Positions 12 to 45,350 of a stretch of DNA of 64,000 bases are shown here, one piece after another. The notes beneath the pieces were generated by a model. It saw nothing but the letters and a program-made list of their open reading frames with translations, had not been told where the DNA came from and made no database searches. The position numbers and the translations under genes are program-made. This DNA is from Eledone cirrhosa. Taxonomy: Eukaryota. Within the stretch, counting starts at the first letter, position 1; each line of letters begins with the position of its first letter. The stretch is taken from contig OZ024748.1 in the NCBI GenBank assembly GCA_964016885.1, positions 47,430,001 through 47,494,000 on the forward strand, in the 5' to 3' direction.

Positions 12-792
12 CAAGTGGCCTGGCAAAGTCGACCTACAACAGGTATGAGTTAGCAAAGCACTCAATAAGGGTAGGTCCTTAGAGTAATAACATACCTTTA
101 AATAGCTTGACCGATTGAACATTGCGGTAGGCAAAACCCAACCATACAATACCAAAGTAACGAAAGAACTACCAGGTTAAAATACAGACCGGGACAAATC
201 AAACGATATACGTCTGAGGTGTTTCCATGAATTCGAAATCATTTATCCAACTTACGTAACACGCAAGCTTGTGGTATTCCATGATCGAACAGAGGATTCA
301 TTTCATCAACAGGGAATACGTTCTGCCTCAAACTGGTGCGAACAAACTAAATGCCACCGCTATAGAAGGCAGCGTACGAACATTTCGTTGTCATGTGTTA
401 TTTCCAACAAGGGAAGCAACCCCCGGTTTTTGGCGGGTAAATTCAAAGTGTTAACAAAGGAAATATTATAATTTCCGCTCAAACATTCTGAATAAAAGCT
501 CGCAACCAGATGTAATTAAACAAACACAAATAATTAACCAATCAATAGGATTGTCTAATTAAATTAATTAGTTAATTATTAAATCTAGGAGAAAATAATA
601 CAAGTGGAAGCTTAGTAAAATCGAAGTTTTGGCTGTAGCCAAGCACAGTCGACCTACAATAGGAATGAGTAGCAAAGCACTCAATAAGGGTAGGTCCTTA
701 GAGTAATAACATACGTTTAAATATCTTGACAAATTAAACATTGCGGCAGGCAAAACCCAACCATACAATACCAAAGTAACGAAAGAACTAAC
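12..792. mobile_element. Non-coding element between (TA)n tracts with ~165-bp diverged direct repeats (~28-171 and ~648-790); probable non-autonomous PLE-like partial tandem
   Basis: GTCGACCTACAA...AAAGCACTCAATAAGGGTAGGTCC...ACCAAAGTAACGAAAGAACTA occurs twice; TA arrays on both sides. Confidence 0.55.
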
Positions 793-2349
793 ATATATAT
801 ATATATATATATATATATATATATAATATAAAACGAAAAATCAGTGATGCATCTGAACTCAATTTATTGTGTGTTACAATTGTTTCGTCGCCGGACAGCT
901 CGAGACACGATCGTTGTGTAGAACTGTCTGATTCTGGATCTGCAGGTTCGACGGACACGTCTAATGATTTCAGAGCAAATTCTATCACGTTTTATATTAT
1001 ATCATATTCTGCTCTGTAAGAACATAGAGTGCTCAACCGGCATACAGCCTATGGAAGCATCTTAGCAACCATCAGACACACACACACACACACACATATA
1101 TATATATATATATATATATAACAAGTATATATATATATATATATATATAACAAATATATATATATATAACAAGTATATATATATATATATATATATACAT
1201 ATATATAACAAGTATATATATATATATATATATATTTATATATATAACAAGTATATATATATATATATATATATATATATATATTTATATATATAACAAG
1301 TATATATATATATATATATATATATATGTATATATATATAACAAGTATATATATATATATATATATATATATATATATATATATATATATATATATATAT
1401 ATATACATACCTGTTATATATATATATATACTTGTTATATATATACATAGGATAACAAGTTATCGTTATAGGTAATCCTGTTAGAGATTGTGAGTACTCT
1501 GCGTCGTGCATAGTTTTAACTATGTGCATATTATATATATATGTATATGCATAGTATATATATGCATATTATATATATATATATATATATATATATATAT
1601 ATATATATGTGTGTGTGTGTGTGTGTGTGTGTGAGTGTGTGTGTATGTATACATACATATGTATGTATGTGTATCTATTGACAGTTAATTTGCAGCAACT
1701 GTGAAATGAGTCCGTATGTTGCTGCCAACTAAACTCTCCAAGAAGATAATAGAAGTAGACAGGGTGTTGCGGAATGGTGGCTGGAATTCTTCGATTTGAG
1801 AATGCTAGAGAAATGTGTAAGCTCTATTTATACAATGGTCTCCACATTATGTAAGCCATATATATATTTATATATATACATATATATATATATATATATA
1901 TATATATATTTATATATATTTATATATATACATATATATATATATATATATATATACATATATATATATATATATTTATATATATACATATATATATATA
2001 TATATATATATATATATATAACCGTGTATACTAATTTTGGAAATATATATATATATATATACACATACATGCAAGATTACATACATACTAAAAGATTTGT
2101 CACTCTTCTCTCACTCTCTCACTCTCTCACTATATATGTGTGTGTGTGTGTGTGTGTGTGTGTGTGTGTGTGTGTGTGTGTGTGTGTGTGTGTGTGTGCG
2201 TGCGTGTGTGATGAAAATTAGGAGTGATGAGTTTGGAAAAGTTGAAGAGAGAGAGAGGGGGAGGGGGAGAGAGAGACGGTGTAGGTGAGGGAGTTATGAT
2301 GAGATAAAGGAGATGGAACGACAATAGAAATAATTGAAGACATTGATTT

Positions 2350-2616
2350 AGAAGAAGAAGAAGAAGAAGAAGAAGAAGAAGAAGAAGAAGAAGAAGAAGA
2401 AGAAGAAGAAGAAGAAGAAGAAGAAGAAGAAGAAGAAGAAGAAGGGAAAAAAAGAAGAAGAAGAAGAAGAAGAAGAAGAAGAAGAAGAAGAAGAAGAAGA
2501 AGGAGGAAACGAAGAAGAAGAAGAAGAAGAAGAAGAAGAAGAAGAAGAAGAAGAAGAAGAAGAAGAAGAAGAAGAAGAAGAAGATGAAGAAGAAGAAGAA
2601 GAAGAAGAAGAAGAAG
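2350..2616. repeat. (GAA)n microsatellite (another at 11917-12051)
   Basis: Direct inspection. Confidence 0.95.
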
Positions 2617-43001: not shown

Positions 43002-44309
43002 AATCAGAAATCTATGAGAAAATTTCTATGATATTTTATTATTTTATTTAATTTCATTTCTTATACAAAACCTGGATTTGGCCAAATAATCATATCGAAG
43101 CCCTGAGTAGCCCCACTGAGCTCTTGGAGTTCTATATTTACACCCGTCCCCCAAAATTGGGGAAACATGACATAGGAAAACCCTCGTAGGTTCGTTGTTT
43201 TCGTCAAAATTATTTCATATTAAAATCGTGTTAATTAATCGTTTATTTTATCAATTTAGAAGAAGACAGACAATTATATTAGGAAGAACGCCATCAGTTT
43301 CGCCATCTTGGATATAATGAAAAATGAATCCATTTATGTCGTCGTCATAAAACATTGGAACATAAAGCAAAAAAAAACACAAAAGTAAAAAAAAAACCCC
43401 GAAGAATCTCTTTTGTTATATATTTTATTAAATGTGTTTGTTTAGAAAATGTGTCTTTCAAACAGAAGGCTTTAGGCATCTCGTAGAAAAATTTTCCCCA
43501 AAACACCACCATCACCACAATCAATACCAGCACCAACAACAACATCAACAATTTCTATTTTCTAAATCATGTAGCTAAATTCGATGGCATGGCATAGTCT
43601 CATATTAATGAACTAGTGAACAAACAAACATAACGATGATTTTAACAGAACCAATTCCATTGCCTCCAAGAGAACAGGTGTTAGTAATTAGAGGAATTGG
43701 CGTCATAAAAGACAAATTATGGCTGATTATAGTTCAACGCTAATTCACTTTACACAATTTGATGTGATGCCATAGCCTAAATTTCACAAAATAGTAAATG
43801 CTTTAACCGGATTAAAAATAGGCTTAGCACTTTTAGTGCAGAGATAGTATTAACTGCAGAGACGAGTTCGGTTCACAAAATAGAGAATGTTACACACAAA
43901 CGCATTTACTGAGAGAGAGAGAGGGGGGAGAGGAGGGGGGAGACTTCGTAAGTCACCCTTATTCGAGTAGAACTCGGTATTAGATATTTTTTCTTGAAAT
44001 TATTGTAATTAAACAATGAATAAACTCTATCAACGATACTTTGCTCTTTCGTGAGATTGCAGATCAAGAGCCCAGGAATATTGTAAAATACATTTAGTAG
44101 TTTCCGTATTTTTTACATACGTTCATATGCATACATGGTCCCGTAACACCAAAGGGAGTCGTAAGGTGCAGTATTTACATACGGCGTTTCTAAGACATCT
44201 TAAATCTGGCAGAGCCCATCTTTCTGCAGTTCTGAATACAACAGATTTCTCACAGAGAGGGATAGAGAGTCAGAGGCTGGAAGTGAGAAAGAGGTATAGA
44301 GATATTATA

Positions 44310-44450
44310 ATAAGAATCGATCCGAGTACTAGACTGGTACTTTTTTTTTATTGAACTCGAATGAATGAAAGGCAAAGTTGACCGCGGCGAGATTTGAACT
44401 CTGAGAGCAGAAAGACGAAAAGAATTCAGTCTGACGTTCAAACTCACCGC
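44310..44450 (-). mobile_element. Diverged SINE
   Basis: CTGGTAC...ATGAAAGGCAAAGTTGACC..GATTTGAACTC. Confidence 0.7.
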
Positions 44451-45350
44451 CTATTACAGAGAGAGAGAGAGAGAGAGAGAGAGAGAGAGAGAGAGAGAGA
44501 GAGAGAGAAGAGAGAGAGAGAGAGAGAGAGAGAGAGAGAGAGAGAGAGAGAGAGAGAGAGAGAGAGAGATTTTATTATGGCTAAATATTGAGTTTTGTTA
44601 GTTTCGCTTGCCTCTGAAAGGTTCGCCAGACAAGAACAGCAGGCGAATCCCGAGAGAAACAAAACATATTTAGCCTTAATAAAATGAATGTTTAAACTCT
44701 ACATCGGCTACTTTGGTATTGAGTGCTCTTTCCTCTTGGCAGTCAAATACATGCGGTTATATATATATATATGGCAATACACCACCGAACACTAATATAT
44801 ATATATATATATATATATGTAGGAATGGAGTTTTATTGTAGTACAATAAATATGTTAATTTAAAACTGCACTATCCACAAGTGTTTTTTAACCTTCATAT
44901 CATGTCCTCCTATTTTATCTGATGAAAACACAAATGTTATTGCATGATGATATTTGTTTTTGAAATGCGCATAATAAAATACATGGAACTCATTTAACCA
45001 TCTTTTGATCTTATATATTATATATATATATATATATATATATATATATATATATATATATATATATATATATATATATATATATATATATATATATATA
45101 TATATATAAAAGTTTACATATATATATACATACATATACGTGTTTTGCAACGGGTCACTTTGTGGCTCAATGAAAATTTAATAAATTGTTTCGGTTATTT
45201 GTTGGAGATTTCTTCATAGAAGCCTCATTCTTATAGCCTGGTCTATTCGAATTTTTATATAGTTAATTATGCTAATTGGGAGAGGAAATGGTATATATTT
45301 TATCTTGTGATTCTATAGACATGTTTTATGATATATATATATATATATAT

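Follow-up and report, generated by a model that had tools for sequence, protein, structure and literature searches.

A small bulged RNA hairpin near the microsatellite junctions of short, probably Penelope-like, elements in Eledone cirrhosa

Introduction

Insertions of Penelope-like elements (PLEs) typically contain 5' copies in inverted orientation, and only one of the two ends has a 'tail' (PMC8557442). PLEs of the Hydra clade are probably the closest described relatives of the elements considered here, a set of short repeats in 64,000 nucleotides of Eledone cirrhosa DNA (contig OZ024748.1, positions 47,430,001 to 47,494,000; this whole stretch is called the window, and positions below are counted from its first letter) that share a small bulged RNA hairpin close to microsatellites. 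All six Hydra consensi are listed as (TA)n-targeting, and Hydra-clade proteins carry an N-terminal RWK motif (PMC8557442). Further marks of the clade are its place in the RT (reverse transcriptase) phylogeny, a DKT motif and an endonuclease without CCHH residues. One PLE protein cuts both strands and also extends them; it is predicted to be dimeric and starts reverse transcription internally at two sites, the tail being the stretch between these two starts (PMC11167929). How the enzyme chooses its RNA and its internal starts, and how tails and inverted copies originate, is described as open in PMC8557442 and has been partly answered in vitro (PMC11167929).

Bulged hairpins of a comparable kind are known elsewhere. 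In the trans-activation response element (TAR) an arginine sandwich is capped by the bulged U23. The secondary structure of 7SK is the same, and the TAR of HIV-2 and SIV has UU bulges (PMC6189040, PMC6140463).

Results

A motif upstream of microsatellites

The window is rich in microsatellites, and its short repeats are bordered by tracts of (TA)n, (CA)n or (GA)n. A sequence-only reading had listed 12 sites of a shared TATTGAGTRC/GAGTRCTC motif near such tracts, and the motif is present at all 12 coordinates. The exact word TATTGAGTRC occurs eight times on the two strands, against a mean of 0.52 and a maximum of 2 in 300 shuffles of non-repeat sequence, none of which reached eight. The looser ATWGAGYRC has 11 occurrences, every one at a listed site (shuffle mean 2.5, maximum 7), while GAGTRCTC by itself is less distinctive, its nine strand matches being reached in 1 of 300 shuffles. 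Seven of the eight exact sites lie 31–49 nt upstream of a microsatellite, taken as a dinucleotide tract of at least four units, whereas positions 25–80 nt upstream of a tract make up 9.7% of non-repeat sequence. Although the motif was picked post hoc, its word also tops (six matches) a census of 8-mers 20–80 nt upstream of tracts, after exclusion of low-complexity words and of words dominated by the PLE array described below.

The similar short distance to the junction that had been ascribed to the sites holds for these seven and fails at 15692. Here the distance to a true tract is 147 nt, that to a (TA)3 remnant about 27 nt, and the site is either a separate insertion or the upstream unit of a composite. 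Site 676 had been set apart as an internal copy; it has a terminus of its own about 79 nt downstream (near 598), resembling its relative 24143 (76 nt). At 1492 (1492..1499, no strand assigned) there is a palindromic 8-mer only, lacking both ATWGAG and the 5' arm described below, and its membership is doubtful. Leaving out 676, 15692 and 1492, seven of nine tailed junctions adjoin TA repeats.

The motif is the 3' strand of a bulged hairpin

Rather than a linear signal, the motif is one arm, the 3' one, of a small RNA hairpin with a bulge. In this fold an RCUC/GAGY helix is separated by a 2-nt UW bulge on the 3' side from an upper helix closed by U-A, and the 3' strand is followed by RC. ATWGAGY occurs at 25 sites in the window and RC comes next in 11 of them. 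The matching 5' arm RCTCT is found within 27 nt upstream at 8 of these 11 sites and at none of the remaining 14 (background 4.7%; Fisher p 1.5e-4). When pairs are counted by script in six hairpins, each from a different lineage, a 2-nt bulge places 17 of 18 upper-helix positions in pairs, whereas bulges of 0, 1, 3 and 4 nt pair 9, 2, 4 and 9 of 18. The sequence of the pairs varies: the second upper pair is A-U, G-C or G-U, the third A-U, C-G or U-A, and the basal pair A-U, G-U or G-C. When arms are permuted among hairpins, 12 of 720 arrangements pair as well as the observed one. This covariation was read from the scripted counts.

A structural scan gave six exact matches, every one at a motif site, versus none in 25 shuffles; allowing one mismatch added no sites, and two mismatches added 12 scattered ones. 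A hairpin descriptor matched eight times against 0.86 in shuffles, a comparison that is partly circular because the descriptor was derived from these sites; the 5'-arm and register tests are less circular. The RC(T) that follows the helix is conserved at 11 of 11 sites, although the hairpin model leaves it unpaired. Pairing of this RC with the TRTT box upstream of the hairpin was considered and rejected, there being no covariation by eye. A general stem-loop at the junction was likewise rejected, with folding z-scores from -3.1 to +1.1 over 11 tails and a value below -2 only at the doubtful 1492.

Seven lineages of sites

The 12 sites reduce to seven lineages plus the doubtful 1492 and are hence not independent. 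Named by site position, the lineages are 56/676/24143, 1027, 15591/24339, 15692, 17253, 23243/36380 and 44721. Flank alignments within a lineage give z-scores of 3.9–31 for most pairs, some pairs being alike in one flank only, and at most 2.8 between lineages; several copies are decayed. The carriers had been called dissimilar, which is right of lineages, whose flanks cannot be aligned with one another, and too strong for sites of one lineage. Nor do the sites all come from one recently diverged family, the outcome that had been named as fatal to the proposal.

In the first lineage the hairpin at 58..85 (minus strand) has a 5-bp upper helix and a UU bulge, lies 47 nt from (TA)n and has the bulged form as its minimum free energy (MFE) fold. 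It and a second copy at 677..704 (minus) belong to a partial-tandem element at 11..792 (minus), in which 15–171 repeats 635–790 at 92% and no hammerhead was found by descriptor. A diverged member of this lineage has a degenerate hairpin at 24144..24172 (minus), with (TA)n 76 nt away. Hairpin 1027 (1011..1032, plus) combines a 3-bp upper helix with a UA bulge, 43 nt from (AC)n. Hairpin 15591 (15593..15618, minus) has a 4-bp upper helix and a UU bulge, 46 nt from (TA)n, and again the bulged form is the MFE fold; its sibling 24339 keeps the 3' strand (24341..24350, minus; 47 nt to (TA)n) and lacks the 5' arm. In hairpin 15692 (15694..15716, minus; UA bulge, 2-bp upper helix) G-C replaces A-U at the base of the helix. 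At 17253 the 5' arm has decayed and only the 3' strand is left (17255..17264, minus; 38 nt to (TC)n). Hairpin 23243 (23244..23264, minus) has a 3-bp upper helix and a UU bulge, 41 nt from (TA)n, and hairpin 36380 of the same lineage (36359..36387, plus) carries an 8-nt duplication in its 3' strand, 49 nt from (TA)n. Hairpin 44721 (44696..44726, plus), with a 3-bp upper helix and a UU bulge 31 nt from (TA)n, is not the MFE fold.

Hammerheads, inverted copies and the tail

On the sense RNA the elements are ordered as a hammerhead (if present), 24–42 nt, a TRTT box, the hairpin, RC and usually 31–49 nt to the junction. The hammerhead calls rest on a descriptor devised in this analysis, which places a hammerhead upstream on the same strand in two of the seven lineages only. 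These are type I minimal hammerheads at 23286..23336 (minus), with cleavage 27 nt before hairpin 23243, and at 15752..15812 (minus), 42 nt before hairpin 15692, an arrangement that had been noticed from the sequence and is upheld here; neither has an Rfam hammerhead match. At 1027 a degenerate hammerhead-like sequence (957..990, plus) lies 24 nt before the hairpin, seen by eye and missed by the descriptor, and in 15591/24339 the hammerhead is 140 nt away or absent. Of the eight descriptor matches, two have the hairpin downstream, one is in a tail-less inverted copy and five have no hairpin. Three focused Rfam scans gave nothing significant and no hammerhead; in a whole-window scan the 150 listed of 201 matches were nearly all to microRNA models, mostly on simple repeats, and every one scored below the gathering threshold.

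In four lineages the element is an inverted pair whose second copy breaks off 3, 5, 5 or 10 nt before the first base of the hairpin and gives way to a microsatellite. The copy at 15880..15950 (plus) is shared up to 3 nt before hairpin 15692 and that at 23565..23857 (plus, 98%) up to 5 nt before hairpin 23243, each then running into (TA)n. The tail-less end of 24339 was measured on its intact sibling, and the copy (24430..24497, plus) stops 5 nt before the start of hairpin 15591; that at 44570..44610 (minus) stops 10 nt before hairpin 44721, then (TC)n follows. The same pattern is seen weakly at 1027 and at 36380, where the hammerhead part lies inverted at about 36287–36345, on the strand opposite to the hairpin, and 56/676 is a partial tandem copy. 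Because the inverted copies end 3–10 nt before it, the hairpin lies inside what in PLEs is the tail, here non-coding and about 55–80 nt long. The elements are dispersed monomers or inverted pairs, with no tandem array of these units. They lack an open reading frame (ORF) for reverse transcriptase (RT) and GIY-YIG endonuclease, being non-coding or truncated. As in PLE derivatives there is an inverted or partial-tandem 5' copy with the tail at one end only, and insertion is into (TA)n as in the Hydra clade.

The hairpin in published consensi

Supplement searches were literal and on the sense strand only, and miss matches split by line ends. In the supplement of PMC8557442, six 9-mers gave 12 matches and a seventh gave one more. 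Three of these fall in the 14-kb Hydra file (File S7), and all three form the full hairpin by eye. In Hydra-2_Amil (coral) it has a 5-bp upper helix and a UU bulge, and is separated by 43 nt from the hammerhead upstream and by 26 nt from the end of the consensus; in Hydra-2_Ajap (sea cucumber), with a 4-bp upper helix and a UA bulge, these two spacings are 38 and 25 nt. Hydra-1_Ajap has a 5-bp upper helix and a UA bulge, with the hairpin 2 nt from the consensus start and a 3' end that goes no further than the TRTT box. By eye, the topology is retained in Hydra-1_Crog, with a changed bulge and one mismatch. Three of six Hydra-clade consensi thus carry the full hairpin, each with a different upper helix, and a fourth a variant; the motif lies outside the ORF. 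The other ten 9-mer matches come from about 445 kb of Naiad and Chlamys consensi, and a single one of them has the 5' arm.

Other collections were searched as well. The search covered 13 of the 33 files of the PMC10294476 supplement, with no motif match in the first 12. In 12.8 kb of bivalve consensi of tRNA-derived short interspersed nuclear elements (SINEs), four 7-mers gave one match, internal and without the 5' arm; the tRNA heads were not scanned.

An autonomous PLE and other repeats in the window

Positions 48862–64000 hold a tandem and inverted array of a near-identical autonomous PLE, whose pseudo-long terminal repeats are 98–99.7% alike. Its 1210-residue ORF (57013–60645) encodes an RT and, at its C terminus, a GIY-YIG domain with CCHH residues and a CX4CxxC linker, which makes it Neptune/Nematis-type by the criteria of PMC8557442. 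The window's one long ORF has an Octopus vulgaris protein as its closest named relative (63–68% identity). The 3' junction of the array PLE lies about 21 nt inside the ORF start and is followed by (TA)n, a clear case of internal initiation, and there is a hammerhead-like core at 56790. ATWGAGY is absent from 48860–64000, and the structural scan has no match there at 0–1 mismatch. This PLE is unlikely to drive the short elements: it lacks the motif and has CCHH residues that Hydra-clade enzymes lack.

Other hammerhead-bearing elements have no hairpin. Those at 13194–13351 and 44854–45011 (95% alike) and at about 16950–17060 end 40–50 nt after cleavage and are possibly tail-less ends of a related family. 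A further family (39883–40149 and 40836–41122, 75% alike) has no hairpin within 110 nt. Two copies of a 234-bp element (6245–6478 and 45353–45586, 98.7% identical) carry an unbulged ACTCG/CGAGT hairpin about 12 nt from the left end, and are related to 10597–10790 and 11107–11295. Between 1096 and 1460 a (TA)n tract has eight interruptions, seven that read ACAAG and one that reads its complement. The same letters form the last bases of lineage 56/676/24143, and the interruptions may be minimal insertions or slippage copies. Short fold-back (palindromic) inserts lie at 11521–11573, 12961–13113 and 15981–16051, two of the three beside TA tracts. A repeat of 200 bp is abundant (16149–16263, 16621–16822, 17427–17552, 23116–23178, 25505–26168, 33488–33729, 36554–36755, 44314–44414 and 47065–47268), and its family is probably a SINE. 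Broken fragments of long interspersed nuclear elements are found at 26640–28330, 30747–31145 and 32691–33451, one with a Pfam zf-RVT match and some flanked by (GATA)n.

Discussion

The tail of Hydra-type PLEs, and of what are probably short derivatives of these, contains a real and apparently undescribed structured element of RNA. No description of the hairpin was found in the literature covered, which did not extend to most subscription papers and the Repbase reports; the supplements of PMC7229834 and of a related preprint were likewise outside that scope and may bear on novelty. We consider it probable that the elements are short Hydra-type PLE derivatives, non-coding and either non-autonomous or heavily 5'-truncated, mostly in (TA)n, and that the hairpin is bound by the PLE protein and sets where reverse transcription starts. 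As the copies encode no protein, the proposed link to the Hydra clade rests on the shared hairpin and hammerhead. The conserved cis signal suggested by the sequence-only reading is thus upheld in part: hammerheads, inverted copies, the tail and the Hydra consensi place it in PLE-type elements, but its unit is a bulged hairpin, of which the 5' arm had been missed. Of the roles then put forward for the signal, RT recognition would fit best. The choice then offered between PLE and retrozyme-like elements falls to the former, as the tandem arrays of retrozymes are absent.

In the mechanism we envisage, the PLE protein would bind the bulge, and the contact would probably be made, as in TAR and 7SK, by an arginine in the major groove. 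With the hairpin as landmark, one cDNA would start just 5' of it, giving the tail-less end, and another 25–50 nt 3' of it, giving the tailed end, both presumably primed from nicks in the target. Two such starts around the hairpin would yield inverted pairs that have a tail at only one end, and the model suits an enzyme able to cut and extend both strands and predicted to be dimeric (PMC11167929). The RWK motif of Hydra-clade proteins is a candidate reader of the bulge. A more specific proposal is speculative, and we rate it as rather unlikely: that this telomerase-related retrotransposon clade has kept a TAR/7SK-type arginine sandwich across at least three animal phyla, that its own protein reads the bulge through a basic RMRWK segment at the N terminus, and that a dimer starts cDNA on both sides. 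If true, it would explain PLE tails and inverted insertions. In Hydra-1_Crog the changed bulge is accompanied by a changed basic motif (a single case, translated by eye).

Several observations weigh against the PLE reading. Thermodynamically, the six hairpins are weak folds (z -2.2 to +0.1), the bulged form is the MFE fold in two of the six only, the UA-bulge variants fold better in the unbulged register, and folding energy does not select a strand. The 5' arm is missing at 3 of 11 sites, the descriptor found no hammerhead in the lineages 56/676/24143, 17253 and 44721, and the junctions at 1027 and 17253 are (AC)n and (TC)n rather than TA. A search of 1–48.8 kb with 85 Neptune-type proteins and the hidden Markov model built from them brought up no coding remnant of a PLE (no match better than E 0.03). 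Among the consensi, Hydra-1_Obim, the only published octopus Hydra element, and Hydra-1_Amil are without the full hairpin by eye; both end 36–47 nt after the hammerhead, at what may be tail-less ends. Hydra-1_Crog breaks the TAR-like core, and the clade was represented by six supplied consensi. Chance matches also occur: by eye, the 3' untranslated region (UTR) of Naiad_Mmer (PMC8557442 File S5) carries a full hairpin about 430 nt from its end. That match stands directly after a stretch resembling a selenocysteine insertion sequence, and is either chance or a second use.

It is unlikely that the signal acts in DNA, as a degenerate GAG-YR-CTC palindrome in the tail recognised by the GIY-YIG endonuclease with the hairpin secondary. 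The tail of Drosophila virilis Penelope is required for endonuclease recognition (PMC11167929), RC(T) is kept at 11 of 11 sites while unpaired in the hairpin model, and Hydra-1_Crog has a perfect 6-bp palindrome at that place; yet the palindrome is broken in 23243/36380, and the upstream 5' arm, the 2-nt register and the compensatory changes would be left unexplained. The same palindrome had been suggested to serve dimerisation, and in RNA it might in this way help minimal hammerheads to cleave as dimers. PMC4209133 regards minimal PLE hammerheads as likely to work in dimeric form, and the 8-mer is self-complementary at several sites, but its 5' half is already paired in the hairpin, GAGCAC variants would mispair centrally as RNA dimers, lineage 23243/36380 reads GAGTACCT, which breaks the palindrome, and three lineages have no detectable hammerhead, so that we now hold this suggestion to be highly improbable.

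Recruitment of a host arginine-rich factor (HEXIM/P-TEFb-like), or control of translation from a 5' UTR, would account for a secondary structure equal to that seen at the bulge in TAR and in 7SK arginine sandwich motif 3, and for the hairpin of Hydra-1_Ajap in the 5' leader ahead of its ORF. It accords poorly with retention of the hairpin in short non-coding copies, with both junction types tracking hairpin position and with the absence of the TAR apical loop, the loop closing the other end, and seems quite unlikely. That the hairpin does nothing and has simply been inherited by old, related families from a common ancestor agrees with the reduction of 12 sites to seven lineages and with the decay of several copies; we think it very unlikely, for pairing is kept with compensatory changes between flanks that cannot be aligned, and the structure recurs in cnidarian and echinoderm consensi. 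We give practically no credence to a coding remnant, the Ile-Glu-Cys/Tyr of a GIY-YIG domain as in the GIECS of Naiad: GIECSF can be read in one frame at 44721 and such codons occur in Naiad ORFs, but the other lineages have stops nearby, GAG is invariant in an AT-rich genome, and the motif is non-coding in the Hydra consensi, which already contradicts it.

With both junction types placed around it, the hairpin, 20–30 nt long and conserved among coral, sea cucumber and this cephalopod-like genome, offers a small mutable target for the question of how PLE enzymes choose their RNA and their starts. In annotation it can serve as a marker by which many short repeats that lie between (TA)n tracts and have no classification may be placed in a PLE clade, and arginine binding, if true, would be a further independent use of the TAR/7SK motif.

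Comparison with known systems

The Hydra-clade PLEs of PMC8557442 share with the window elements (TA)n targets, inverted 5' copies and a tail at one end, and with two of the seven lineages also a type I hammerhead close to the 3' end; they differ in that the window copies have no ORF. The main text of that paper uses the word 'hairpin' 0 times, and its Hydra section, in the excerpts used, is silent on this structure. Poseidon PAc (PMC11167929) likewise has two junction classes that bracket a tail downstream of a hammerhead. Its starts lie in an AC-rich stem-loop inside the ORF, and the PAc stretch displayed lacks ATWGAGY; in the window elements the tail is non-coding and no general terminal stem-loop was found. 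Animal non-LTR (long terminal repeat) retrozymes (PMC7229834; bioRxiv 10.64898/2026.07.22.740005) are, as the window elements probably are, short, non-coding PLE derivatives, and bear hammerheads as some of these do. They are defined as tandem repeats of 170–400 nt with a hammerhead per unit, unlike the window elements; expression as circular RNA is a further mark of retrozymes. The excerpts used from both accounts contain no such hairpin.

The TAR pairs A22-U40, G26-C39, A27-U38 and G28-C37 with the bulged U23 equal the pairs around the window bulge (PMC6189040, PMC6140463). The sequence pattern of an arginine sandwich, a bulged pyrimidine after a Watson-Crick pair with an A-U two steps on, is present in all six lineage hairpins and, by eye, in three of the four hairpin-bearing Hydra consensi, the exception being Hydra-1_Crog. 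A U-A-U base triple and arginine intercalation are the further marks of that motif. The loop of the window hairpin closes the opposite end and there is no TAR apical loop; homology is not claimed, and with the core broken in Hydra-1_Crog arginine binding is only a lead. Hepadnavirus epsilon and the telomerase template-boundary element are RNA hairpins that are bound by an RT and fix where copying starts or stops. The window hairpin is likened to these by analogy only.

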